This document shows, piece by piece, positions 4,337 to 35,931 of a stretch of DNA of 43,420 bases. The notes under the pieces are model-generated. The model ran no database searches, was not told where the DNA came from, and worked only from the letters and a program-made list of their open reading frames with translations. The stretch lies in sequence record OZ035819.1; one strand, written 5' to 3'. The translations under genes were made by a program, and so were the position numbers. Source of the DNA: Kagunavirus LM02P1. Each line of letters opens with the position of its first letter. Positions within the stretch are counted from its first letter, which is position 1.

Positions 4337-4365
4337 AAGGCCCCGTTATGGGGCCTTAGTTTTAT
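4337..4365. terminator. bidirectional intrinsic terminator
   Basis: GC hairpin AAGGCCCC-gttat-GGGGCCTT flanked by T-runs on both strands, between convergent genes 3872..4333 (+) and 4362..4655 (-). Confidence 0.6.
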
Positions 4366-4655
4366 TTCTTTCCTAATGCTTTCTTGATTGCTTTGCCGGC
4401 CAGATTTAACGGATGGTCTTCATGGCAATCATCAGAAGATACCGCGCAAACATCCTCAACGTAATCGCGAAGCTGGCGAAGTGCTTCAAGTAACTCTGGT
4501 GCCGAGGCGATAAGTTTTGCGTTAGCCAATTTTACTGAGTCCTTTTCCCTCATACTCATTACCTCCGCCACATAAACATCACCCGCCCAGATAGCCGTTC
4601 CGCGATTAACCCATGCACCGTCTGTACCTTTAAATTCGTGTGTCATTTTTTTCAT
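4362..4655 (-). CDS. hypothetical protein (antisense moron, 97 aa)
   Basis: ATG at 4655 with own promoter at 4676-4704 and terminator at 4337-4365; no motif recognised. Confidence 0.55.
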   Translation of the reverse strand: MKKMTHEFKGTDGAWVNRGTAIWAGDVYVAEVMSMREKDSVKLANAKLIASAPELLEALRQLRDYVEDVCAVSSDDCHEDHPLNLAGKAIKKALGKK

Positions 4656-4675: not shown

Positions 4676-4704
4676 ATAGTACCCTATTATATTGGGGTGT
4701 GCAA
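4676..4704 (-). promoter_or_regulatory. sigma70-type promoter (TTGCAC-N17-TACTAT) for 4362..4655
   Basis: Read on minus strand; core 27 nt (4673-4699) identical to 13905-13931. Confidence 0.55.
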
Positions 4705-4770
4705 ACTATTTGTCTACGTATTCCAGTTATTCCGCTCAATTGTAAATGTTGGAATAAACTATTCGAATAG

Positions 4771-4799
4771 TTGACTTTTCACTGAAAATGTGCTAAGCT
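4771..4799 (+). promoter_or_regulatory. strong sigma70-type promoter TTGACT-N17-TAAGCT with TGn extended -10
   Basis: -35 at 4771-4776, -10 at 4794-4799 preceded by TGC; perfect palindrome CTATTCGAATAG at 4759-4770 abuts the -35. Confidence 0.55.
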
Positions 4800-4805
4800 C
4801 CACCT

Positions 4806-5006
4806 GAGCTTGTGAAGTATGAACAAGCGACCGCGGCGCGGGCAGGTAACGGAGCGGGACGTAAGTCCTGAGTGTAGTTACGCTGACGCGTTCGGAAGGG
4901 CCATACTCTATTGCTTGTGTAAAAAGTAGCTGGTTTACTGAGATTACGCCGTTTTTATGTTTAAATGATAAGGACTAGCGCCCCGCTTTATGGCGGGGCT
5001 TTACTT
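4806..5006 (+). ncRNA. candidate ~200-nt noncoding transcript (or leader) between promoter 4771 and terminator 4978
   Basis: GC-rich, stop-rich region bounded by a promoter and an intrinsic terminator; only coding option is a 36-codon ORF (4819..4929) without a clear RBS. Confidence 0.3.
4978..5006 (+). terminator. intrinsic terminator
   Basis: Hairpin CGCCCCGC-tttatg-GCGGGGC followed by TTTACTT, 18 nt upstream of the Rz ATG. Confidence 0.5.
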
Positions 5007-5023
5007 ATCGAGAAAGGAGAAAC

Positions 5024-5410
5024 ATGAATCTTAAAGCAACTGTCGTAGCTGTAGCATGTTTCATCATCCTTGCCTACGCACACGGCTACTATCAATACCG
5101 CATCGGCTGGAACGAAGGCCGGGTGAATCTCGTTTCGCAGCAACAGCAGAAAGCACAGGCTGAGTTAGCGAAGAAAACACAACGGCAGCAGCAGGACGAA
5201 TCTAAGGCCGCCGCCGCCGATTCCAAAGGCAAGACTGAATCTGAGGTAATCACCCGTGAAGTCGTTAAGTACATTAAAACGCCTGGTCGCAGCGTGTGCA
5301 CTTTCGATGATGCTCGCGTCCTGCTCAAGTCCCGCGCCGTCGCAAACGCCAATTCCATCTCCGGATACGACGATGATACAGCCGCCGTGCAAGCTGGCAC
5401 CGCCAAGTAG
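5024..5410 (+). CDS. Rz: i-spanin (Rz-like inner-membrane spanin subunit)
   Basis: 128 aa; N-terminal TM helix VVAVACFIILAYA then charged Q/K/A-rich periplasmic region; a lipoprotein ORF overlaps in the +1 frame. Confidence 0.65.
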   Translation: MNLKATVVAVACFIILAYAHGYYQYRIGWNEGRVNLVSQQQQKAQAELAKKTQRQQQDESKAAAADSKGKTESEVITREVVKYIKTPGRSVCTFDDARVLLKSRAVANANSISGYDDDTAAVQAGTAK

Positions 5411-5519
5411 CGACGCTGACGAGGATTTGGCTATTGATGTCCAGAACGCCGAATGTGTACGGCAACTGCGTCTTAAGGTATTCCAGTTGCAGGATTATGT
5501 GAGGAATATTCTGGAATAG
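5256..5519 (+). CDS. Rz1: o-spanin (Rz1-like outer-membrane lipoprotein), overlapped architecture
   Basis: 87 aa; signal peptide with lipobox LASC, proline-rich mature part (SSPAPSQTPIPSPD); begins inside Rz in another frame and extends past its stop. Confidence 0.6.
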   Translation: MKSLSTLKRLVAACALSMMLASCSSPAPSQTPIPSPDTTMIQPPCKLAPPSSDADEDLAIDVQNAECVRQLRLKVFQLQDYVRNILE

Positions 5520-5601
5520 TTGCCTTGCATGTTGGAATAATTTATTCTTGACATGTAAATCCGGGTGGCCCGGGTTCCAACGTCCAGGGGACATACTGAC
5601 T

Positions 5602-7370: not shown

Positions 7371-7395
7371 GGGAGGGACTTCGGTCCCTCTTTTC
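7371..7395 (+). terminator. intrinsic terminator after capsid gene
   Basis: Hairpin GAGGGAC-ttcg-GTCCCTC followed by TTTT. Confidence 0.65.
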
Positions 7396-11909: not shown

Positions 11910-11935
11910 AAGGCCCCTTCCGGGGCCTTTTTCTT
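11910..11935. terminator. bidirectional intrinsic terminator
   Basis: Hairpin AGGCCCC-ttcc-GGGGCCT followed by TTTTCTT; same hairpin family recurs at 4337, 22745, 25394 and 28778. Confidence 0.65.
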
Positions 11936-12330: not shown

Positions 12331-12520
12331 TGTTAACTCTCTTAAATCTGGCTATGCCTGACTCGTTAATGTTGCCTATTTCAAAGAAGCTGCGATATTT
12401 AGGCGAATACATTTTTACATCGCCATTCTCTAGGGTGACCCCTTCATATACAGCACCTACTTCGAATCCATTTTTCTCCGCGTACGGACTAACCTCGGTA
12501 CATTCATACATGTCTTTCAT
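12320..12520 (-). CDS. small hypothetical protein (66 aa)
   Basis: ATG at 12520 overlaps the stop of 12517..13647 (ATGA coupling). Confidence 0.45.
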   Translation of the reverse strand: MKDMYECTEVSPYAEKNGFEVGAVYEGVTLENGDVKMYSPKYRSFFEIGNINESGIARFKRVNSDK

Positions 12521-13647
12521 CCCAGCATCTCCGGTGAAATAGTTAAACGTGCGACCTCGCCATATTCGGCGCTATAAGTAATTACATTTGCACTGCGGCC
12601 TGACATCCATCCGCCGCGGGAGGCGTAGGCGTCTTTAGCCGCTAAGGTGCGGTGTTGCTCAACAACCATGTTACGGCTTTCTACAATCTTCTGATGGTGC
12701 AGGTGGCCCACGTGGGCGTAGCTATAGGCACTCTCACCGAACGCTTTGCGGAACTTGGCAATCATAACCGGTTCGATAGCGTCGAAGCGTGCTTTATGTC
12801 CGTGATGAAAGAACAGCGTAGTTTTGCCGTGTTGTACCATCTTGTAAACATCCGGCGACGTATCGACGAACACACGCGGCTCGTTGTCGTACAGCGTACT
12901 GAACATCTCGGCTAACCAAATCATACCCGATTCGTCGTGGTTCCCTTGCACGATAAGCAGTCGGACGTTTTTATGTTTAACCAGTGCCATATCAACAACA
13001 CGGCGAACCATACGAATCATGTAGCGTACAAGTTTCTGATAGCGTGTGTCCGCATCAAGAACATGACCACTCGCTGGCGTAACTGCGTCCAGACTATCGA
13101 AGTGCGCAAGGTCGCCGAGCAGGTTAATAACTCCTGTTCCCGCGTCCGGTGCTTTCTGAAACGCCGCGTCGAACCATCGGGAGAACAGGTCTTCAGCAAT
13201 CTTCATATCCCAGTCGTCGCCGCTTTCATCGGCCCAGGCCAGCATACCGAGATGGAAATCAGATACCGTGTAAAGATTAAGTAGCTTGTCGTCGCGTTTG
13301 GCTCGAGTCGCTTTAACAGGCGCAACCGGCGTAATCTCTGACTTCATACCTTCGATTACGGCTTTCATCAACTCGACCTGACGTTCGGCGTCGGTGTCAG
13401 TCTTAACCCATTGCAGTTTGGTGTTGCCGAACTCATCCACCAGTGACGACGTCCCCTTAATCTTGTAGCCGTCCGGCACAAGGTGACTAACGTCGCGCCC
13501 GTGGCCTACGCCTTTCTTTGCCAGCTTCGCTTTACGGATACGAATAACGCGGTCTGAGATGCCGTATTTACGGGCGATGTCTACATTCTTCATCCCGGCG
13601 TTCAATTCTTCCTGTAACTGCTCGTCGGTTATTTTCTTCTGGGCCAT
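12517..13647 (-). CDS. HTH domain fused to calcineurin-like metallophosphoesterase (SbcD/Mre11-like or phosphodiesterase-like)
   Basis: 376 aa; N-terminal HTH NVDIARKYGISDRVIRIRKAKL; full metallophosphatase motif set SDFHLG, GDLAHFD, GNHDE, HHGH, GHLHH; RBS GAGGAAG. Confidence 0.7.
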   Translation of the reverse strand: MAQKKITDEQLQEELNAGMKNVDIARKYGISDRVIRIRKAKLAKKGVGHGRDVSHLVPDGYKIKGTSSLVDEFGNTKLQWVKTDTDAERQVELMKAVIEGMKSEITPVAPVKATRAKRDDKLLNLYTVSDFHLGMLAWADESGDDWDMKIAEDLFSRWFDAAFQKAPDAGTGVINLLGDLAHFDSLDAVTPASGHVLDADTRYQKLVRYMIRMVRRVVDMALVKHKNVRLLIVQGNHDESGMIWLAEMFSTLYDNEPRVFVDTSPDVYKMVQHGKTTLFFHHGHKARFDAIEPVMIAKFRKAFGESAYSYAHVGHLHHQKIVESRNMVVEQHRTLAAKDAYASRGGWMSGRSANVITYSAEYGEVARLTISPEMLG

Positions 13648-22744: not shown

Positions 22745-22768
22745 AAGGCCCCAAACGGGGCCTTTTCT
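22745..22768. terminator. bidirectional intrinsic terminator between convergent late (+) and replication (-) transcription
   Basis: Hairpin AAGGCCCC-aaac-GGGGCCTT followed by TTCTC. Confidence 0.65.
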
Positions 22769-23088: not shown

Positions 23089-24509
23089 TTCTTACCTCGT
23101 CTCTTCATGTAATTAAGCAACTCTTCCTGTACTGATTTCTTCTCGTCTGTACGCGCGGAAACAACCTCATCCAGCGTGTCTTTAGCGACGATGTGATAGA
23201 GGAACACCGGGCGCTCGTGACCGGCCTGTTTCTGACGAACGGGCCCTATGCGTTCTACAACCTGTAAATAATGCTCAAGGTTCCAGCCTTGCGAAATAAA
23301 CGCCAGATGATGCCCGCCGTCCTGTAAATTCAAACCATGCCCGGCTGACGCAGGATGAACGCATAATATTTCGATTTCACCTCTGTTCCACGCTTCCATC
23401 TGTTTATTACCCTTAGCACCTTTGGCGAACGCCTGTGCCTGCGGGAATCGTTTCAGGATGCGCTCAAGCTCATGCTTGAACTGGTAGGCCACCAGTAACG
23501 GCGCACCCTGCAATTCCTCAACAATGGACTCCAGTGCGTCCAGTTTCGTGTCGTGCACTTTCTCCCAGTCTTTGGTCGCTTCGCCGTCTGGCCCTGACAC
23601 ATACACGGCACCAGATGCAATCTGTAGGCACTTCGACGTCTTCGCAGCGGCGTTAGCCGCTTCAACTTCCCCGCTCTCCAGTTCTGCGAATAGCTTTTCC
23701 TCCATATCGATGTACGCCTGACGTGCTTTCTTCGGCAGGTCAATTTCCACGGGCACGATAATCGGCGCTTCACATCCAAACCACTCGGCAGCATCAATCG
23801 TTAGACTAATGTCCTTCATCTTCTGGTGAATCTCGGTATCCGCTCCCGGGCGAGCGTGATACTCCCGCGCCATCGCGGATTTACCTTTCTGTACCGAGTT
23901 AAACCAGCGGTCGGTGAATGCCGTGTACGACGACCCCAGGCGCTCGCCCGCGTCGATAAACCAGTTCTGACCCCACAAGTCTTTGAGGCCATTTGGCGAC
24001 GGGGTGCCAGTAAGGTTAATGAAACGCTTAACCTTTCCGAATGCCACCTTACTGAGCGCCTTTGCTCGCTTGCTTCCACCAGAACGGCTACGGAATGATT
24101 TCAGCTTCGTGCTTTCATCTGCGACGATAACGGTAAAAGGCCAGTCGTCTTTGCCGTAGTAGTCAATCAGCCACTCGATAACTTCGTAGTTCGTACACAC
24201 TACGTTAGCATCGGACTCAAGCGCCGCGATGCGGCGCTTTTCTGAACCAGTTGCATCGACGACATTCAGGCAGGGGAATTGCCATTTCTCTTGTTCTGCC
24301 GGCCACGTACCGGACGCAACGCGCAACGGGGCGAGGATTAACACACGGTCCTCTTCAGTAAGCTGCCCGTTACGGAACAGTCGGTTTAATGTCCACAGTA
24401 CGCTGCCGGTCTTCCCGGCGCCCATGCTTGCCCATATGTTGCAGCGATGATGTTGCAACATGAACGAAGTCATGAGTTTCTGGTACTCGCGCCTTTGAAA
24501 CTTAGACAT
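23085..24509 (-). CDS. SNF2/DEAD-like superfamily 2 helicase
   Basis: 474 aa; Walker A ASMGAGKT, DExx-type box VIVADESTKLK, C-terminal helicase domain. Confidence 0.8.
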   Translation of the reverse strand: MSKFQRREYQKLMTSFMLQHHRCNIWASMGAGKTGSVLWTLNRLFRNGQLTEEDRVLILAPLRVASGTWPAEQEKWQFPCLNVVDATGSEKRRIAALESDANVVCTNYEVIEWLIDYYGKDDWPFTVIVADESTKLKSFRSRSGGSKRAKALSKVAFGKVKRFINLTGTPSPNGLKDLWGQNWFIDAGERLGSSYTAFTDRWFNSVQKGKSAMAREYHARPGADTEIHQKMKDISLTIDAAEWFGCEAPIIVPVEIDLPKKARQAYIDMEEKLFAELESGEVEAANAAAKTSKCLQIASGAVYVSGPDGEATKDWEKVHDTKLDALESIVEELQGAPLLVAYQFKHELERILKRFPQAQAFAKGAKGNKQMEAWNRGEIEILCVHPASAGHGLNLQDGGHHLAFISQGWNLEHYLQVVERIGPVRQKQAGHERPVFLYHIVAKDTLDEVVSARTDEKKSVQEELLNYMKRRGKK

Positions 24510-25185
24510 GATTAGCCTCGTAAACTGCTTTTGCGAAACCCCGCGGGGTAAGGCTGCGGATTGTTTTTGTCCTCACCGATTTACCGCCTAATTTATTGTG
24601 TTGGTCAGAATACTCATCATCCACAGCAACGACTGACTTAACCGGCATTACGAAACCATTACCTGTCCAAAGACATGTCTTTTTAGGGTACGCGTCCCTC
24701 GGTTTTATGTACTCTGGGAACATTGGATGTGTGTCGTCTTCGGGTAAATAGCCGCCGTATTCGTACGGGTTGAACGTGTAGTCAGGCTTACGCCATAAAG
24801 ACGAAAGAACGCTAACCGGATTCTCAATCATATAGGGCACGTTGTACCTTTTAGCCAGACGCGCCGCCACTTTGCATGTAATCACGGCCTCTACCTGAAA
24901 AGTTGGATTCTTCTTCCGCTTCGTTTCAAAATGCGCCGCGCCGCTAACGGCTAAATCTGTGCACGGAGGGAACGCGAAAATAATATCCGGTGCAACCTCG
25001 AAGTCGAACTTATTATCAATCCACGCGTTTATATAGTGAATGTTCTCGTGTTCAACTTTTGCACCCAATCGCGCGTAGTCGCCGTGGTCGGCGCCGTCGT
25101 AGTTGAAACAATAGCAAGTATGGCCTGCTTCCGCCCACGGTTGGGCCATAAGGCCCGAACCGTCAAACAATGACCAGACAATCAT
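24502..25185 (-). CDS. compact DNA cytosine-C5 methyltransferase-like protein
   Basis: 227 aa; motif I-like LFDGSGL, motif IV-like DIIFAFPPCTDLAVSG (Pro-Cys dipeptide), motif VI-like MIENPV; no obvious target-recognition domain. Confidence 0.5.
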   Translation of the reverse strand: MIVWSLFDGSGLMAQPWAEAGHTCYCFNYDGADHGDYARLGAKVEHENIHYINAWIDNKFDFEVAPDIIFAFPPCTDLAVSGAAHFETKRKKNPTFQVEAVITCKVAARLAKRYNVPYMIENPVSVLSSLWRKPDYTFNPYEYGGYLPEDDTHPMFPEYIKPRDAYPKKTCLWTGNGFVMPVKSVVAVDDEYSDQHNKLGGKSVRTKTIRSLTPRGFAKAVYEANHV

Positions 25186-25373
25186 TTTGCCACCAGCACC
25201 AGTTCTTTACGCCCGAACGCCGTAACGTTGCCTGTTACATCTTCGATAACCAGTTTACCGTTCGACTCGACGTACACCGTATCAACGGCAGCCGGACGTC
25301 GGGTCTTAACGTTGAAAATCATGTCGCCCGGTACGATGTCACGTGCGGGTTTGCGGTCATATTCGTGTTTCAT
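25182..25373 (-). CDS. hypothetical protein (63 aa)
   Basis: Coupled to the methyltransferase-like gene. Confidence 0.4.
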   Translation of the reverse strand: MKHEYDRKPARDIVPGDMIFNVKTRRPAAVDTVYVESNGKLVIEDVTGNVTAFGRKELVLVAK

Positions 25374-25412
25374 TTCTCAATTCCTTATAGTTAAGGCCCC
25401 GAAGGGCCTGTA

Positions 25413-25667
25413 TTAGTTAGATAATTCGCCTTGAACTTGCTTAATAAGTTCTCTGGCCGTTGTGAAGTCTACGGACAGCCCTTTAGCGACGTCTTCCGCA
25501 AGCACCTTGTGACCAACTGACCCGAAGCCCAGGATACGGTTTACTTCCGAAACCTTCATAGACCATGAGTAATTAACTGACGCCCCTGTGTATTTACCGA
25601 TACGAACAGATGAATCGATTGAACCAATAATCATGGTGTTTACTGACAGTTGAAGTTCGATAGCCAT
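25413..25667 (-). CDS. hypothetical protein (84 aa)
   Basis: ATG at 25667 downstream of promoter 25702-25730. Confidence 0.4.
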   Translation of the reverse strand: MAIELQLSVNTMIIGSIDSSVRIGKYTGASVNYSWSMKVSEVNRILGFGSVGHKVLAEDVAKGLSVDFTTARELIKQVQGELSN

Positions 25668-25668
25668 T

Positions 25669-25983
25669 TTATAATTCCTTATATTGTTGGGGTATGTGCT
25701 TACTATAATAGTCTGCTATTAGGGTGTCAATCTGTTTTATCGAACCAACGACAAAAACATTTGCGCCACGTTTGCGCATCCGCTCATGCTCACGTAGCTG
25801 GTGGGGGTCAGGCTTCGTGTTTTCGTCTTTCTTAACCTCGACGAACCAGACGACGCCGCCGGGGAGAATTGCCAGCAGGTCGGGGGCGCCGGAACGCCCC
25901 TCGTAGGAAAGTTTACGAACGAGGCCACCAAGGGCCTCGAATCGCTCCTTTGCATATTTCTGTATTTTGCCTTCCGGGGTCAT
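25669..25983 (-). CDS. VRR-NUC domain nuclease (PD-(D/E)XK fold)
   Basis: Motif GAPDLLAILPGGVVWFVEVK (D...E-V-K core); ATG at 25983 preferred over upstream TTG at 25998. Confidence 0.65.
   Translation of the reverse strand: MTPEGKIQKYAKERFEALGGLVRKLSYEGRSGAPDLLAILPGGVVWFVEVKKDENTKPDPHQLREHERMRKRGANVFVVGSIKQIDTLIADYYSKHIPQQYKEL
25702..25730 (-). promoter_or_regulatory. sigma70-type promoter TTGACA-N17-TATAGT inside the 3' end of the VRR-NUC gene
   Basis: Near-consensus hexamers read on minus strand; would drive 25413..25667 and downstream genes. Confidence 0.5.
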
Positions 25984-26132
25984 GAGCGCAGAACCCAAGT
26001 AAGGAAAGCCCCGCCCAGAACGGCAACACCGACAAAATTAAAGAACAGGCCATAGCAGAACATCGCGGCTATTCCCGCACCGAGTAGAAGTGCGAGCATG
26101 GTTACTATCGTCCAAAATACAAGCATTGTCAT
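25980..26132 (-). CDS. small membrane protein (50 aa, 2 predicted TM)
   Basis: ATG at 26132 with GGAGG RBS; hydrophobic throughout; stop overlaps VRR-NUC start. Confidence 0.35.
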   Translation of the reverse strand: MTMLVFWTIVTMLALLLGAGIAAMFCYGLFFNFVGVAVLGGAFLTWVLRS

Positions 26133-26214
26133 AATACGCACTCCTCCCGTTTCGTATGCTCAATCCCACAGCGCGGACAGATTCGACAGTCTTCTTCATA
26201 GAACCAGTAAATTT

Positions 26215-26346
26215 TCATTCCAGCACCCACAGATAAATTGCGATGAACATGCCCAGTACGGCGGCCATCATGCTGTATTGACCCTCGTGGCAGTAGACAC
26301 CGGCGGCGAATCCCGCCAGTACCGCGATAATAAGTTTACTTAGCAT
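26215..26346 (-). CDS. small membrane protein (43 aa)
   Basis: ATG at 26346 overlapping the 3' end of the polymerase gene; hydrophobic. Confidence 0.3.
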   Translation of the reverse strand: MLSKLIIAVLAGFAAGVYCHEGQYSMMAAVLGMFIAIYLWVLE

Positions 26347-28609
26347 AGCGGTACACCTCTTCCCCAGCCCATGTTAACGGGAACCCTTCAGCCCATTCAG
26401 GTAATGCGCATAGCAGGTCACCCATCTCTTTAACCGTGTACTCCGGCGTATCTGGCGTTTCAGCCACACATTCGTCGTGTACGTGGAGCACAATCGGGTA
26501 GCCCGCCGCCTCGACCGTCAGGAGTCCGTTAACTAGTAAGTCACGGCACAACGCCTGGATGATGTTTTCACACAATTTTCCGCCGTGGGTGTACAAAGTT
26601 GTCCACTGGCGGGTGGTCTGATTCTCACCCTGGTACTTGATGCGGACGTTAGTAGTGACACGCCCATCCTCGTCAGTTTCTTTAGTAACGCTCAGACCTA
26701 TGCCGGGGTATGACATGATGCGCCCCGACGGCAGTTCCACGCACAACCACCAACCCGGCACAAAGTTACCCTGTCTGTCTTTCTCTTTAGTACGCCAGAT
26801 GCGGATGGCTCTGTCGCCGTTAAGGCGTACTCGGGCCCCCGCCCAAAACTCTCGTCCCGGATTTCTAATGGCGGCTATCACCGAATCCTTAAGGTCATTC
26901 CAGAATTTCACTGTTTCCGGATGGGCTTCCCGCCACATGCGCTTAATGGCGTCACAGGTGCGCCAGACTTCTTTAGGCAGCACATAAGAGGCCCGTTCAT
27001 CTTTTTTACCAGGCTTTGGCGGGCGTTTAGCCTCCTGAATTCTGGCCCATTCGTAGCCACGGGCGGTAGCCGCCCAAATGTGGTCGGGGAACGTGCCCCG
27101 CATTGTCTCTGTCATTTTAAAGAGGTCCAGCCCGTAAGTTTTAGCCATAGTCATAAAAGCCCCTACGCCCCCCTCGTAGCCGAGGCCGAGTTCGCAACAT
27201 TTCCCGACCTGACGTAGGTCCTTACGGGTGGCTTTTAGTTCTACGGGGTCCATGCCGAACATCTTACCAGCTGTGGCGCAATAGATATCAATCCCCGCGC
27301 GGAACGTCTCAAGGGCGGACGTCTCCCCCGCCGTCCAGGCTAGCCCGCGCCCTTCCACGTTTGAGTAGTCGGCAACGAGCAACTTATTACCTTTTTCCGG
27401 GATGATGCAACTGCGGACAGTCGAGGCCGTTAGTTTAGACACATCGAAACGGCGATGCGCCCGGCCCTTTAAAAGCAAATTGATGCCAAATGATAGCGGG
27501 TTAAGCCTGCGGTTCCAGTCTTCGTCGGACTCCCACGGCTGGCGCACAAGTTTCTTTTCCTCGTTAGTCGGGTCGTCGTGGTAGTACCCGCGCGACAGGT
27601 TCTGCGGTTGGAACCCTTTACCCGCAAATCGTAAAGTGCGCTTTGCCCCACCGTACTGGATGCAACCGCGGCGGCGGCCGTCTTTGGACCGTCCTAGCAG
27701 GAGCGGTTTGTATTTTGTCGACGCCGTGGAGGCCGCGCCGAGGCGCATCTCAATGATTGTGCGCGCATCGTCAGGTAAGTCGTCGTCCTCTAGCAAACCT
27801 TCGAGCGTTGCTTTCTGTGCATTATAGATATTGTAGGCCGGTGCCAGCTCCCGAAGGATTGGCAGGAAGTCTTTACCCGTTAGCTTCCCGCCAAATTTAG
27901 CCCTGGCCTCGTTTTTTAGCTCTTGCTTGTGGCGTTCAACTGCTGCTACCGCCGCCTCAGCAAGAGCCGCATCAACAAAGAAGCCTCGGTCGTTGATTAA
28001 CTGGTCAAGTTCAAGTACACGGTCCTCGAAATCGGAGTTACCCCAACGTGGCAGCTTATGGAAGACTTCACGCATCGCTGTGATGTCGCTCACGGCGTAC
28101 TTGATGAACAGCGCCCACTCGTCCGGGTGCGTCTCCGCGGTGTAGCGGCGGATTTTGTAGTTCTTCGGCGTCGGTTTAGAAAAACGCTGAATCAGCGCCT
28201 TACCGCGTTTGTCTTTCGCATTGTCCGCAGATACGCCCAACACTTCGCACAATGCGTCAAGTGAACCCGGCAGCGCGTGACGAAACGCCCAAATCATCGT
28301 ATCAATGGTGTTGCTTACCGGAATATCAAAGCCCCAGCAGTGCTTCATGATGAGTCTGTCGAACATTGAGCCGTTGTGCCACACCATCTTAATGCGACTG
28401 TTAGGCTTAACCAGACGGCGTAACGCGCGGTGCAAATCCCCCGGCATGTCGCTGCCGTTGGTGCAATCCCACACCTGCACAGGCTCGTCGTCAAAAGCGT
28501 ATGTACAGATAAGGACTTCTGTGGTTGGGTGTTCGGCGTAAGCGTAGGAGCCGACTTTCTTTAAATCGGCTTCGGAGAATGTTTCAAAGTCAAGGTATAA
28601 GTAGCTCAT
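26336..28609 (-). CDS. family A DNA polymerase with 3'-5' exonuclease domain
   Basis: Exo I YLDFETFS; Pol motif A LLVADYSNVEGR, motif B RQVGKCCELGLGYEGG, motif C VLHVHDE; ATG at 28609 with AGGAAA RBS preferred over TTG at 28663. Confidence 0.85.
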   Translation of the reverse strand: MSYLYLDFETFSEADLKKVGSYAYAEHPTTEVLICTYAFDDEPVQVWDCTNGSDMPGDLHRALRRLVKPNSRIKMVWHNGSMFDRLIMKHCWGFDIPVSNTIDTMIWAFRHALPGSLDALCEVLGVSADNAKDKRGKALIQRFSKPTPKNYKIRRYTAETHPDEWALFIKYAVSDITAMREVFHKLPRWGNSDFEDRVLELDQLINDRGFFVDAALAEAAVAAVERHKQELKNEARAKFGGKLTGKDFLPILRELAPAYNIYNAQKATLEGLLEDDDLPDDARTIIEMRLGAASTASTKYKPLLLGRSKDGRRRGCIQYGGAKRTLRFAGKGFQPQNLSRGYYHDDPTNEEKKLVRQPWESDEDWNRRLNPLSFGINLLLKGRAHRRFDVSKLTASTVRSCIIPEKGNKLLVADYSNVEGRGLAWTAGETSALETFRAGIDIYCATAGKMFGMDPVELKATRKDLRQVGKCCELGLGYEGGVGAFMTMAKTYGLDLFKMTETMRGTFPDHIWAATARGYEWARIQEAKRPPKPGKKDERASYVLPKEVWRTCDAIKRMWREAHPETVKFWNDLKDSVIAAIRNPGREFWAGARVRLNGDRAIRIWRTKEKDRQGNFVPGWWLCVELPSGRIMSYPGIGLSVTKETDEDGRVTTNVRIKYQGENQTTRQWTTLYTHGGKLCENIIQALCRDLLVNGLLTVEAAGYPIVLHVHDECVAETPDTPEYTVKEMGDLLCALPEWAEGFPLTWAGEEVYRYAK

Positions 28610-28761
28610 TTCTTTTTCCTTAAATCTAGTGCCTTCGTTTCGCTGAGTCTTATTTTCATACAATCACGGCAAATCCACACATGCCGGTATCCGGCCCGGT
28701 ACTTATCCGCGTACCACGGAAGAGGTTTCATATAGCGATAAACGTGCTTACAGAAAAACAT
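28606..28761 (-). CDS. small Cys/His-containing protein (51 aa)
   Basis: ATG at 28761; CKH...CRDC; stop TGA overlaps the polymerase ATG (ATGA coupling); coordinates checked by hand translation. Confidence 0.3.
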   Translation of the reverse strand: MFFCKHVYRYMKPLPWYADKYRAGYRHVWICRDCMKIRLSETKALDLRKKK

Positions 28762-28777
28762 TATTTTCGACCCTTAG

Positions 28778-28801
28778 TAAAAAGGCCCAATGAAGGGCCT
28801 T
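28778..28801 (-). terminator. intrinsic terminator after SSB gene
   Basis: Hairpin AGGCCC-ttcatt-GGGCCT followed by TTTTT on minus strand. Confidence 0.55.
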
Positions 28802-28820
28802 AGTTAAATTGATTCAGATA

Positions 28821-29447
28821 TTAACGGCGGCGACGTTCGCGGCGCGGTGCGTCATCTTCTTCGTCGTCTTCCAGGTCATTGACGCTTGCAGCGACTTTAG
28901 AACCGCCAAACGCTTTACCTTCGCCGACGTATTTAATCGCCAACAGGTTAACTCCGAGGACTTTGTATTTCTGGCTGAACCAGATTTCTACGCTTACGTT
29001 AGCAACGCAGCCGCTGTAAACCTGTTCGCCTTCAATCTGTTCGCCGTCTACGTTGAAGTCCTGCTCTACCTGAGTCTCACCTTTTTTAGAGGTTACAATC
29101 AGTGGCTGTTTCTGTGCTTTCGCTTTGAAGTAGAAGCCTTCCGGGAAGTCTTCAAACGGATTGTCGCGCTCGGCAATGTCTTTAATAGCGCATTTATCCA
29201 TGTGCTTACCTTCGCCGTAGTTGGACTTCATCCATTTCTCGGCAGCAGCTGCGCCTAACGCCTCTTCAACTACAGCGTAAACCGTGTCGTAGAGTGCGTC
29301 GATTTGAGCATGGTCGGACGGCAGGATAATAGTTGCGCTGTACTGGCCTTTAGTGATTGAGCCATCATCGTTTTCACGGTCTTTTTCGCGTTCGAATACG
29401 TTAACCCAAGCAGTGTTTACTTTACGCAGATTTAATTTCAGTCCCAT
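28821..29447 (-). CDS. single-strand DNA-binding protein (DUF2815-like)
   Basis: 208 aa with acidic C-terminal tail DLEDDEEDD typical of SSB; own near-consensus promoter; adjacent to DUF2800-like nuclease. Confidence 0.55.
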   Translation of the reverse strand: MGLKLNLRKVNTAWVNVFEREKDRENDDGSITKGQYSATIILPSDHAQIDALYDTVYAVVEEALGAAAAEKWMKSNYGEGKHMDKCAIKDIAERDNPFEDFPEGFYFKAKAQKQPLIVTSKKGETQVEQDFNVDGEQIEGEQVYSGCVANVSVEIWFSQKYKVLGVNLLAIKYVGEGKAFGGSKVAASVNDLEDDEEDDAPRRERRRR

Positions 29448-29499
29448 TTGATTTCTCGCTTTTCAGTTTACTCCGGGAACTGCCCGGCCAGTGATTAGA

Positions 29500-29528
29500 A
29501 ATATAATAGCTAACTATTCAGGTGTCAA
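29500..29528 (-). promoter_or_regulatory. sigma70-type promoter TTGACA-N17-TATATT for SSB gene
   Basis: Near-consensus hexamers read on minus strand, ~50 nt upstream of the ATG at 29447. Confidence 0.6.
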
Positions 29529-29791
29529 CCCTTCCATCCAGTTATTTTCTCAACTATCAATACGTATTCGAAAGGCCACTCCAAATTCTGCACCCATTTA
29601 ATTTCCTTCGTCTGGTCCAGTTGCTCGGGGTCTACCGTTTCATACTTAATCGCAACGTAGACCGTTAGTGGAAGAAGGATAATTAGAAGCGGCACTAACA
29701 TTGCCCAGTAACAAACAAATGCCACAAACCCGCCAAATACCCTGAACGTTTTACGAATCATTTCAAATCCTCCTCTGTTACCCGATTCCAC
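29525..29791 (-). CDS. small membrane protein
   Basis: Hydrophobic segment FVAFVCYWAMLVPLLIILLPLTVYVAI; start uncertain (overlaps nuclease gene end). Confidence 0.35.
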   Translation of the reverse strand: MESGNRGGFEMIRKTFRVFGGFVAFVCYWAMLVPLLIILLPLTVYVAIKYETVDPEQLDQTKEIKWVQNLEWPFEYVLIVEKITGWKG

Positions 29792-30999
29792 TCAGGCCGT
29801 TTGTCGTCTGCCGTTGCAACGCATGGTGCGCCTGGCTTACGGGTGATGAAGTCTTTCAGTTCTTCTTCCGGTATTACTTTAACCGCTTCGGTAGGGGTCA
29901 TGAGCACTTCTTTAGTCAGCTTGTCGCCGTAGAGTTCTGCCACTTTCTCTGCGTCTTTCCACGCACGATTACCCGGCCTGCCTTCAACCAACTTGTACCC
30001 CGGCACTTTCTTACCGGAATGCAAAGCGGCGGCCATAGCTTTCTCAACCTTGTCGATGTGCTGGCGCAACAACGGCAACTTCTCATACTCAGATACGAGT
30101 TGCTCCGGCGTAAGTTCCAGTGCAAAGTCATCTTCCAGTTCTCCGGCCAGTACCGAATTAACGGTTTTTGTACGCGCGGCGCACTGTTCAGAGAACCGGC
30201 ACCACTGACAGCCATCGACCGACGGCCTGAAGTCCGACGCCTTCAGGTTCTTCTTACCGCGGAAATAGGCATCAAGAGCCAACAGCGCGCGTTTCTGGGC
30301 AAACTTAGCGAACAGCTCCAGCCCCTCAGCCGAGATGTCCCACTCCGACGCGCCACCCGCGTACGGCTGGAAGATAACCAGGCGAACTGTTGTTATGTGA
30401 TAACGTCTCTTGAGTCGGCGATAAACACCGAGAGCATAGAGCATAAGCTGTTTGTTTTCTTTCGCTTCGACACGATGCCGCCCTGTTTTAAGGTCGCCAA
30501 TAATTAGCATGTGCTCGTCTGTGTTCGCCAGCTCCTGGACGGCAACAAGGTCGGCGGTTCCGAATGTCTCGACGCCTTCGTAACCTGGATGCAGCACCTC
30601 AGTAAGATTGACGCGCATCTCCAGTTTTGCGTAAGTAGCCACGTCGATAATCGCTTTGCAGTAGTCGGTGTACTTTGTACACTGGTCAATCATGTCCGCC
30701 GTAATAAGTACCGCGCCTTTCATCGGACTGATTAGCGCCTTAATCTGGCCTTTACCCTCATCCAGTACATATGCACCTACTTCACGTGCTAACGGTAGCG
30801 CAGTTCCGCGGATATAGGCATTTAGGTGCACTTCTGCGATTGTATGACATGCGGTCCCTGTAACGGCAGCTTTACCCGATTCGTTAGGAATGTCTTTTTC
30901 ACACGCCAGTGATGCGGCACAGGTAAGCCACTTTTTAGCACCTGATGGCGACAGTAAGGCGTGCACATCGTTATTGCCGCCGCGTTCTTTTAAAATCAT
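29758..30999 (-). CDS. PD-(D/E)XK nuclease, DUF2800/Cas4-like
   Basis: 413 aa; N-terminal LSPSGAKKWLTCAAS motif as I recall for this family; sits between SSB and primase as in many phage replication modules. Confidence 0.55.
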   Translation of the reverse strand: MILKERGGNNDVHALLSPSGAKKWLTCAASLACEKDIPNESGKAAVTGTACHTIAEVHLNAYIRGTALPLAREVGAYVLDEGKGQIKALISPMKGAVLITADMIDQCTKYTDYCKAIIDVATYAKLEMRVNLTEVLHPGYEGVETFGTADLVAVQELANTDEHMLIIGDLKTGRHRVEAKENKQLMLYALGVYRRLKRRYHITTVRLVIFQPYAGGASEWDISAEGLELFAKFAQKRALLALDAYFRGKKNLKASDFRPSVDGCQWCRFSEQCAARTKTVNSVLAGELEDDFALELTPEQLVSEYEKLPLLRQHIDKVEKAMAAALHSGKKVPGYKLVEGRPGNRAWKDAEKVAELYGDKLTKEVLMTPTEAVKVIPEEELKDFITRKPGAPCVATADDKRPEWNRVTEEDLK

Positions 31000-31493
31000 T
31001 TCTCGGCTCCGTTAACTGTAAACCCGTATTTAATTTCGGCTTGCCTACGAGCCTTAGCCGCGTTCTCTAACCTATCGTAAGCACCTAAATAAATTGGCGC
31101 CCCATCTACATAAATTCTGGCGACCCACTTACCAGAGCGTTTATGAAACCCAACGCCTTTAACACCTGAAGCATTGTCAGTCCGTATTTTGGTGCCGTGG
31201 GCGATACTACCTCGTCGCATTTTTATAAGATTTTCTATTCTGTTATCAGTTCTATCTTTATTTGCGTGGCGAATTACTTCCCCTGGCGCTATCTCCCCAT
31301 TAAACATCTCCCAAACCACGTGGTGGATAAGTTTAGTAACCCCGTTAAAACGTAGTATTTTGAATTCACTTCCGTCGTTATCCACCCTCACACTCCCAGC
31401 TTCTTGGCCTATTTTTACCGATTTTGATGGTCTTATCTTCCAATACAATTTCCCTGTGACAGGGTCGTAGTCAAACAGTTCATGCCAATTCAT
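30996..31493 (-). CDS. HNH homing endonuclease with C-terminal AP2 DNA-binding domain
   Basis: HNH region HHVVWEMFNG...IRHANKDRTDNRIENL; AP2-like region GVKGVGFHKRSGKWVARIYVDG; ATG at 31493 with GGGAGG RBS; locally AT-rich by eye. Confidence 0.7.
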   Translation of the reverse strand: MNWHELFDYDPVTGKLYWKIRPSKSVKIGQEAGSVRVDNDGSEFKILRFNGVTKLIHHVVWEMFNGEIAPGEVIRHANKDRTDNRIENLIKMRRGSIAHGTKIRTDNASGVKGVGFHKRSGKWVARIYVDGAPIYLGAYDRLENAAKARRQAEIKYGFTVNGAEK

Positions 31494-35476: not shown

Positions 35477-35505
35477 ACTATAACACCTACAATAGCCAAA
35501 CACAA
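35477..35505 (-). promoter_or_regulatory. sigma70-type promoter TTGTGT-N17-TATAGT for leftward replication operon
   Basis: Hexamers with 17-nt spacer read on minus strand upstream of 35447. Confidence 0.45.
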
Positions 35506-35868
35506 CCTATTGACAAAATAAAATGTAGCTGTAAAATCAACGTATCGAAGAGCTTTAGTTCAGAATTACTTAGAAACAATATTCTTAAGTCTCGGGTACT
35601 TAAAGCCCCGCCCTAAAGCGGGGCGCTAAATAGTACTCTTGGTAACGTTAGTATCTAAGTTTCCTCAAAGTAACAGCAAGTGGCAAGAAAGCCCCCGTCT
35701 ATTTAAATTTTACCCTCCTACATAAGCCACTGATAATTAAAAGTTTCTATAGATGCCGTAAGCAAGGTAGAGAGTACTTCACTCCGCTGGGGTGGGCTAA
35801 CGCCCACCCACTGCGTTGCGTACTCTTTTAAGAAACGAAAGAATCACAACGGCAACGTAACTATTCTC

Positions 35869-35897
35869 TTGCACGCCCCAACATAATAGGATACTAT
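35869..35897 (+). promoter_or_regulatory. sigma70-type early promoter TTGCAC-N17-TACTAT
   Basis: Same architecture as 37065-37093, 4676-4704 and 13908-13936; followed by conserved leader TTATCGAAACGAGA. Confidence 0.55.
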
Positions 35898-35931
35898 TCA
35901 CTTATCGAAACGAGACAGAGGAGTGAGGGTT

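Follow-up and report, generated by a model that had tools for sequence, protein, structure and literature searches.

A conserved structured RNA at the start of operons in Guernseyvirinae phages, with an architecture resembling that of promoter-proximal antitermination RNAs

The nut signal of phage lambda consists of a 15-nt hairpin and boxA, requires the N protein and loads an antitermination complex on RNA polymerase. The put RNAs of phage HK022 act in cis on the transcribing polymerase and suppress pausing and both kinds of termination; putL and putR are two paralogues located just downstream of PL and PR, whose structure starts at +3 and comprises two stem-loops (PMC9378689). Structured cis-acting RNAs that head very long operons of cellular or mobile-element DNA and bypass internal terminators include EAR of Bacillus subtilis, canT of Tn916 and conAn2 of pLS20 (PMC11658703). 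A short PR′–tR′ transcript is processed to the Hfq-binding regulatory RNA StxS (PMC7547250). In this study, we analysed a stretch of 43,420 nucleotides from Kagunavirus LM02P1 (sequence record OZ035819.1; the whole stretch is hereafter termed the window), in which an earlier note made from the sequence had proposed the interval 4759–5006, which includes a promoter and a terminator, as a small RNA (sRNA), a micro-protein gene or a leader of the Rz/Rz1 genes. We report that positions 4806–4918 of the plus strand encode a conserved folded RNA, that the product of the interval is RNA and not protein and that this RNA represents a new, uncatalogued structured family confined to Guernseyvirinae (Kagunavirus, Jerseyvirus and relatives). 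The function of the family is probably related to transcription. Its architecture resembles that of promoter-proximal antitermination RNAs, to which it is unrelated.

The locus is similar to put in several respects. It lies just downstream of a promoter of the host polymerase, and its structure begins, with a 5′-terminal hairpin (P1), at +2 or +3, compared with +3 in put. After the short 5′ hairpin comes a longer, irregular stem-loop, the early transcribed region contains a −10-like hexamer, and paralogous copies each head a long terminator-containing operon, two copies being present in at least 17 contigs and one in the window. As in HK022, no dedicated phage antiterminator protein is recognizable: no Q, N or antiterminator Pfam domain was found in 20 scanned open reading frames (ORFs) of the phage, mostly small early-region ORFs and not all ORFs of the genome. 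The core of the RNA, however, measures ~97–113 nt, compared with ~72 nt for put; P1 and the long stem together occupy ~90 nt (4808–4895) and carry other internal motifs, and the phage that carries it is a virulent siphophage, whereas HK022 is lambdoid and temperate. A filter-free search of HK022 24000–31000, which contains putL, with our covariance model R1 gave a best score of 3.9 bits (E ~7). Because the covariance model finds no homology, the RNA is proposed to 'work like' put and not to be a 'member of' that family. Put suppresses intrinsic and Rho-dependent terminators in cis and independently of other factors, by way of the zinc-binding domain of β′.

The PR′–6S/StxS–tR′ region of lambda and Stx phages likewise combines a constitutive σ70 promoter with a hairpin ~200 nt further on and a position upstream of lysis and then structural genes. 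Lambda, however, needs Q and a Q-binding element, and no Q-like domain occurs in the ORFs scanned here; moreover, the U-tract of the present locus is weak and not conserved across the variant types of the RNA, and a second copy heads an early operon. We know of no report of lambda 6S as a covariation-supported structured family. The nut sites share with our RNA the occurrence of an RNA signal once in each of two operons, near the promoters, but the core lacks a boxA consensus and no N-like protein was recognized in the scanned ORFs. A boxA-like sequence, UACUCUUUUAAG, in the tail following the early-region slot of the window (see below) was rejected, being merely the 3′ arm and U-run of a hairpin. 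EAR, canT and conAn2 differ in their Gram-positive hosts and unrelated sequences, and no match was obtained to those families that Rfam holds; canT is ~450 nt long and conAn2 needs a protein partner.

The RNA core is composed of the following elements.

4806–4918, plus strand: structured RNA core (covariance model R1, 143.6 bits, E 2.5e-36; all pairs formed)
4808–4828, plus strand: P1, the 5′-terminal hairpin, GCUUGU (4808–4813), loop GAAGUAUGA, ACAAGC (4823–4828)
4831–4895, plus strand: long irregular stem, consisting of P2a, P2b, P2c, P3, internal loop and P4 from the base outwards
4831–4833 with 4893–4895, plus strand: P2a, CCG with CGG
4835–4839 with 4888–4892, plus strand: P2b, GGCGC with GCGUU, containing two invariant G.U pairs
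4843–4845 with 4883–4885, plus strand: P2c, CAG with CUG
4846–4850 with 4877–4881, plus strand: P3, GUAAC with GUUAC
4851–4854 opposite 4871–4876, plus strand: conserved internal loop, GGAG opposite AGUGUA
4855–4870, plus strand: P4, CGGGAC-GUAA-GUCCUG, closed by a GUAA loop
4896–4913, plus strand: conserved unpaired segment AAGGGCC-N6-UAUUG, directly 3′ of the long stem

P1 and the long irregular stem are separated by a 2-nt linker. At least seven variant types of the family can be distinguished. The Rz site has types A, A′, C and D, and an early-region site has B1, B2, B3 and sometimes C. The internal loop follows the consensus GRAG/AGYGUA in types A, A′, B1, C and D, and AAGGGCC-N6-UAUUG is found in types A, B, C and D, its N6 varying without compensating changes elsewhere. 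The complete family consensus (P1, a CCGCGG-NGC...GCN′-UUCGG stem with the GRAG/AGYGUA loop and P4, and AAGGGCC-N6-UAUUG, directly after TGnTA(A/C)GCT) is present at 4806–4918. The near-invariant loop and junction nucleotides are GRAG/AGYGUA, a C bulge and AAGGGCC. The single-sequence folding energy of the core is unremarkable (z −1.8 to −2.3), and a pairing of AGUAUG in the P1 loop with a 3′ CAUACU, suggested by a single-sequence fold, was rejected since changes in the 3′ segment are not compensated and the B types lack the pairing. The internal loop did not fit the consensus of a K-turn or sarcin–ricin motif, and neither identity was assigned.

The structure is carried by covariation. Motif scans and a covariance model, for which types A and C and a structure drawn by hand served as the basis, recovered 78 copies, 44 of them distinct. 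Among these 44 sequences, standard pairs fill 97.0% of the pair cells, compared with 82.7% in shuffles and 27–38% when the partners are slid, the covariation score is 0.341 against 0.105, and 18 of the 29 pairs show two-sided (compensatory) changes; these counts were taken from the model-fitted alignment, which leans towards the structure, because MAFFT misplaces the central helices (P3 and P4 of types A′, B1 and B2). P1 is 98.8% paired, with two-sided changes in four of its six pairs. One P2b pair occurs as C–G (21), U–A (17) and A–U (4), and is already visible without breaks in the MAFFT-only alignment. RNAalifold independently re-derives P1, P2c, P3 and P4. P2a is invariant and so is not tested by covariation. 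P4 occurs in at least eight different sequences, all of which pair, and both P1 and P4 have been exchanged wholesale between variant types with pairing kept, as follows.

P1, types A, A′, B2, B3 and C: GCUUGU/ACAAGC
P1, type B1: GCUUGUG-AGAUAU-CGCAAGC
P1, type D: UACGCU-UUC-AGCGUA
P1, type E: UUCGU-UCU-ACGAA
P4, type A: CGGGAC/GUCCUG
P4, type A′: CGGAC/GUCCG
P4, type B1: GUGCC/GGCAC
P4, type B2: CACG/CGUG
P4, type B3: CACGU/ACGUG
P4, type C: CGGUGC/GCACUG
P4, type D: GGGCG/CGCCC

The invariant G.U pairs identify the functional molecule as the plus-strand RNA and exclude the minus strand and DNA cruciforms. The many self-complementary segments that the earlier note had pointed out form a covariation-supported structure, and the comparison across homologous phages that it had recommended bears out the conservation of this structure.

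No match to Rfam 15 was obtained at gathering thresholds over the whole window; within 4700–5050 three sub-threshold hairpin matches reached at most 15 bits, and a search of the window for tRNA and tmRNA found none. The cassette 4740–5025 (286 nt) matches 180 phage records, from Escherichia, Salmonella, Shigella and Raoultella phages, 178 of them at 95–99% identity. When compared with Salmonella phage SETP13, the cassette is 93–100% identical per 60-nt bin, whereas the adjoining genes are 51–93%, mostly 60–88%, identical. When viral contigs, metagenomes and genomes (one per species) were scanned for the motifs, true matches occurred only on Guernseyvirinae-like contigs, which measure ~40–45 kb if complete and are otherwise shorter fragments with the same flanks; the remaining matches were dismissed as chance matches in GC-rich DNA. 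Among them is a 78-nt match in a highly repeated, near-identical soil Actinomycetota element (loci L178–L289) that possesses none of the helices of the RNA; the element itself looks like part of a mobile or coding sequence. Two 'bacterial' matches, of types D and B3, lie on short contigs of Taishania pollutisoli CZZ-1 (scaffold48, L290) and of the Bacillota metagenome-assembled genome OH_PDB_109 (L274), and are most likely phage contamination or mis-binning. A blastn search of 5,426 E. coli genomes found no host copy or mimic.

Many Kagunaviruses carry a second copy of the core, ~80% identical to the first, in the divergent intergenic region of the early genes, where an HTH gene lies on one side and the rightward small-gene operon on the other. 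At least 17 IMG/VR contigs, as well as annotated phages, have both copies, in the same orientation. The two copies of one genome always belong to different variant types, with shape kept and sequence diverged, and each copy lies immediately ahead of an operon that runs in its own direction. The window yielded no second core in self-BLAST or in a covariance-model search run without filters; only the GC hairpin recurs, inverted, at 35601–35628. The corresponding slot (copy-B slot) holds an unrelated module of ~210 nt (35510–35720), which has its own promoter (TTGACA-16-TAAAAT at 35510), carries an inverted 27/28 copy of the leader GC hairpin (35601–35628) and is common only to K1G, K1H, K1ind2/3 and EC3-1. 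Downstream of this module the usual copy-B tail resumes (GUCUAUU...CACUGAUAAUU...long hairpin), and the 383-nt leader folds with z −3.5. More distant relatives, in which Rz is ~50% identical, have other leaders of 200–300 nt at the Rz site (types E, F and G). These start from a promoter of the same kind and contain a 5′ hairpin, stems rich in GC, CGGAAGGGUC, which is what type E retains of the unpaired segment, a ACGGCAGCA/UGUUGCCGU hairpin and, ahead of the ribosome-binding site, a GC hairpin, but no U-tract.

The elements that start the transcript are listed below.

4751–4770, no strand assigned: operator-like inverted repeats GGAATAAACTATTCGAATAG, directly abutting the −35 and including a palindrome at 4759–4770
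4771–4799, plus strand: σ70-type promoter (P4771), −35 TTGACT (4771–4776), 17-nt A/T-rich spacer, extended −10 TGc (4791–4793), −10 TAAGCT (4794–4799)
4805–4810, plus strand: −10-like hexamer repeat TGAGCT, a 5/6 match to the −10, 5 nt downstream of it

P4771 had been described as a near-consensus extended −10 promoter. Its coordinates, its −35 (5/6 to consensus) and its TGn extension stand, but the −10 matches TATAAT at only three of six positions (T1, A2 and T6), which is why the promoter is absent from a stock promoter scan; a scan crediting the TG recovers it as the sole strong σ70-like plus-strand site ahead of the late operon. The promoter is more than a chance match, since all 75 homologous RNA copies for which sufficient upstream sequence exists (39 distinct upstream sequences) have T(T/A)GACT-N17-TGnTA(A/C)GCT at a constant distance. 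Leaders of type D have T(T/A)GACT-N17-TGtTACGCT and those of type E TGGACT-N17-TGaTAACCT. In all 75 copies the core begins 3–5 nt past the −10, i.e. at about +1 to +3, and P1 therefore starts at approximately +2 or +3 of the transcript, the predicted 5′ end of which is G4806 or A4807. The hexamer repeat takes the form TAAGCT-N5-TGAGCT in types A, B and C and is exact in type D (TACGCT-N3-TACGCT); speculatively, it could act as a σ70-dependent pause element.

The palindrome reported upstream of the promoter is indeed present (CTATTCGAATAG, 4759–4770) and forms part of a larger GGAATA-N3-TATTC repeat (4751–4764). GGAATA-N3-TATTC occurs in the window only at 4751–4764 and 5534–5547 (four matches versus 0.5 expected); leaders of types D and E carry it 6 nt before the −35, and it is missing upstream of copy-B promoters. 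The repeats at 4751–4770 are probably an operator bound by a DNA-binding regulator, which would set timing independently of the RNA. The phage has HTH_17 and NinH-like ORFs, and GGAATA-N3-TATTC is a likely operator for a phage DNA-binding protein. The second occurrence (5534–5547) abuts a TTGACA at 5547 that lacks a −10; the hairpin CCGGGTGGCCCGG comes next, shortly before the scaffold gene.

Downstream of the core, the leader continues with two further elements.

4919–4966, plus strand: A/U-rich tail, with ACUGA (4937–4941) and GCCGU (4948–4952) shared by all tail types
4967–5009, plus strand: extended hairpin before the Rz ribosome-binding site, made up of a GC hairpin (4980–4999) and a lower stem

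GCCGU(A/U) occurs in the tails of types A, B1, B2, D, E, F and G, and in E and F it forms the 3′ arm of the 9-bp ACGGCAGCA/UGUUGCCGU hairpin. The GC hairpin has 8 bp, seven of them GC, and a folding energy of −17.9 kcal/mol (z −3.8); phage Shashou shows a compensatory C>A/G>U change in this stem. In the lower stem, GAUAAG (4967–4972) pairs with CUUAUC (5004–5009) and takes in the 3′ end of the U-rich run. The interval had been said to end in an intrinsic terminator. A hairpin does exist at 4980–4999, but its U-tract is imperfect (UUUACUU at 5000–5006), and the sequence that follows, UUUACUUAUC, is partly paired in the lower stem and is not the long uninterrupted U-tail of an Hfq-type sRNA terminator. 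Type D has a two-tier hairpin (GCCCGAC/GUCGGGC with a lower stem UAUACG/CGUAUA) without a U-tract, in whose leader no terminator was called; the hairpins of types E and F also lack a U-tract, so that the 'terminator' is not universal among Rz-site leaders. No terminator was called after the core of the B1 second copy, and only a weak one after that of B2. The hairpin at 4967–5009 is thus best regarded as a conserved structural part of the leader that, in type A, may be at most a leaky intrinsic terminator. The tails of B2 and B3 second copies contain a C-rich, G-poor (CTCA)n microsatellite of 3–7 units (locus L007 1690–1735 and the same region in L008–L010), and the (CUCA)n tract is a plausible Rho entry site or slippage-prone tract.

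We propose, tentatively and with a probability of roughly 0.4, that the core is a cis-acting promoter-proximal leader that alters transcription elongation or termination, working like HK022 put without being homologous to it. The host σ70 polymerase would start at P4771, and the nascent RNA would fold into the 5′ hairpin and the long irregular stem with its GRAG/AGYGUA and AAGGGCC elements. The folded core would then act in cis on its own polymerase, alone or with a host or phage factor, as a processive antitermination or anti-pausing element, and the modified polymerase would pass the hairpin or leaky terminator at 4980–5006, Rho-dependent termination in the long untranslated leader and the internal terminators at 7371 and 11910. 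The 5′-terminal hairpin may additionally protect the 5′ end of the transcript. A more specific form of this proposal, in which the core on emerging binds the host polymerase, needs no partner for its antitermination or anti-pausing effect and evolved independently of put, with GRAG/AGYGUA and AAGGGCC as the polymerase-contact surface, is possible but doubtful.

Several observations argue for a cis-acting leader. The core is promoter-proximal, co-oriented with and at the head of long operons, and distributed over two operons; its shape and loop nucleotides are kept while stem sequences drift; and it is more conserved than the flanking genes, the identity of 95–99% across hosts being consistent with a target as conserved as the host RNA polymerase. 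The late operon needs read-through, with P4771 as its sole strong promoter and terminator-like hairpins at 7371 and 11910; the promoter scan found no further strong σ70-like plus-strand promoter in it, including after these hairpins. The leaders are long, untranslated and followed by hairpins, no Q-like or N-like domain was found in the scanned ORFs, and in more distant relatives the site still has a long structured leader even where the core sequence is replaced. Other considerations weigh against this proposal. Cis action and antitermination are deduced from position and analogy, and the HK022 put region yields nothing with the covariance model. The hairpin with UUUACUU could end a discrete RNA, and stability, processing, control of translation and ligand sensing are equally conceivable roles for a structured leader. 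The identity across host genera may in part reflect recent cassette exchange and not constraint, as other Jerseyviruses carry type D at the same site. The second copy is dispensable, because an unrelated module occupies the copy-B slot of the window, and the covariation counts of the model-fitted alignment represent only ~7–8 independent lineages.

If the core were part of a stand-alone trans-acting sRNA of ~200 nt (4806 to ~5006), transcribed constitutively from P4771, ended at the hairpin and acting, e.g. as a decoy, on host or phage mRNAs or proteins, Rz transcription would depend on leak-through or regulated read-through. A promoter followed ~200 nt downstream by a stable GC hairpin and UUUACUU is what such an RNA would require, its 5′ and 3′ hairpins would stabilize it, the conserved single-stranded AAGGGCC, CUAUUG, ACUGA and GCCGU could serve as seeds or protein sites, and StxS provides a precedent. 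We nevertheless consider it unlikely. In a covarying lower stem, an A-rich arm further upstream pairs with the imperfect U-tract; the corresponding hairpins of types D, E and F lack a U-tract, and the core also heads a second operon in relatives, without a good terminator after it; together with the invariable position of the copies directly upstream of co-oriented operons, these features of the sequence lean towards a leader rather than an independent sRNA. Of the alternatives raised in the earlier note, an RNA product is therefore retained, the leader is favoured and the micro-protein falls away, as described below. A conditional attenuator, in which the core would be a small-molecule aptamer or a site for a phage or host protein (nut/N-like or a translational regulator) whose occupancy decides whether the hairpin ends transcription, or sets the level at which Rz and the late genes are expressed, would place a constitutive promoter under temporal control, and appears to us as unlikely as the sRNA. 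The order of promoter, structured domain, hairpin and ribosome-binding site is that of a transcriptional riboswitch or attenuator, near-invariant GRAG/AGYGUA, C bulge and AAGGGCC are reminiscent of ligand or protein pockets, and a strong σ70 promoter before lysis and structural genes calls for some delay. However, no Rfam riboswitch class matches, the hairpin is ~75 nt downstream of the core and the two have no strand in common, and timing may be set at the DNA level through the GGAATA-N3-TATTC operator; a late-specific switch is hard to reconcile with the presence of the same core ahead of the early-right operon, whose promoter is otherwise unregulated. An alternative fold in which GCCGU of the tail pairs with GCGGC in the 5′ strand of P2 was rejected as a switch, as it shows no covariation.

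In T7, RNase III cleaves sites in polycistronic mRNA, and the P2–P4 stem, ~23 bp with an internal loop, is comparable to RNase III substrates. The core could therefore be a passive stability or processing element, in which P1 blocks entry of RNase E or RppH, the long stem is an RNase III-type site and the half-life and translation of the operon mRNA are set accordingly; every type has P1 starting no more than 2–3 nt from the predicted 5′ end, where 5′ protection requires it. Such elements tolerate wide sequence variation, however, and the near-invariant loops and junctions, the 95–99% identity across host genera and the same complex fold at two operons would be left unexplained, which makes this explanation improbable. 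The coding alternative concerns the following ORF.

4819–4929, plus strand: 36-codon ORF, rejected as a gene

The ORF is present, as had been noted, and lacks a Shine–Dalgarno sequence; its ATG lies in the loop of the P1 hairpin, 13 nt from the predicted 5′ end. Many GenBank records imply through a hypothetical-protein annotation that it encodes a micro-protein, and it is intact in type A copies. The RNA core is annotated as a hypothetical protein in Shashou (CPT_Shashou_007, L004 2580–2690) and in fBC-Eco01 (fBCEco01_09, L001 2236–2352), once with a 'ribosome binding site'. The homologous ORFs, however, have 9, 17, 19 or 22 codons through truncation, or 40–41 codons with a different frame and sequence, the ATG is missing in type B1, type D and homologue L057, and indels among homologues respect the helices and not the reading frame. 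The chance that a micro-protein is encoded here is accordingly close to nil, and the hypothetical-protein annotations of the core are probably wrong.

Kagunaviruses and Jerseyviruses are widely isolated and are used as therapeutic and biocontrol phages. To our knowledge, it is not understood how they time and sustain transcription with the host polymerase alone; one RNA-seq study of a Kagunavirus, phage vB_Eco_K1B4, was found in the literature (PRJNA939978/PRJCA028359, PMC12645636); its data are public, and non-coding RNA or regions are not addressed there. A conserved structured RNA at the very start of the main operons is a concrete and testable candidate for a regulator. If the RNA does act in cis on RNA polymerase, it would be only the second phage example after HK022 put, with an unrelated fold; RNA-only antitermination would then extend beyond one lambdoid lineage and could supply a compact part for terminator-proof expression in enterobacteria. 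Were it a self-sufficient antiterminator, a whole subfamily of virulent, therapeutically used siphophages of E. coli and Salmonella would drive both of its long operons by RNA-only processive antitermination. Since many GenBank records call the RNA a hypothetical protein, these annotations need correcting.

The window phage is a K1G/K1ind-type Kagunavirus (Guernseyvirinae). On the plus strand, the terminase, portal, head-morphogenesis and Hoc-like genes extend to a bidirectional terminator (4337–4357), which is followed by a variable minus-strand insert (4362–4655), the promoter at 4771, the leader and the Rz/Rz1, scaffold, major capsid and tail genes up to ~22551. The leader comprises ~215 untranslated nucleotides, of which the core forms the first ~110, and heads an Rz/Rz1–scaffold–capsid–tail operon of ~17.5 kb that starts with the genes below.

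5013–5519, plus strand: downstream genes, with ribosome-binding site AAAGGAG (5013–5019), Rz i-spanin (5024–5410) and embedded Rz1 o-spanin (5256–5519, lipobox)

The replication genes are on the minus strand. The divergent intergenic region 35478–35922 starts the rightward small-gene operon, which runs round into the terminase genes; this operon and the late operon together cover essentially the whole plus strand. The insert at 4362–4655 occupies a 'moron' slot between the Hoc-like gene and the leader promoter and contains a 97-aa minus-strand ORF without a Pfam match; in relatives the slot is taken by endonuclease VII, an HNH endonuclease, a DNA methylase, a sliding-clamp-like gene or nothing. 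The bidirectional terminator-like hairpin AAGGCCCC-loop-GGGGCCTT is found in three copies (4337–4357, 11910–11929 and 22745–22764), each of which borders plus-strand late genes on one side and a minus-strand gene or insert on the other (4362–4655, 12517–13647 and 23085 onward), which suggests a reused module boundary.

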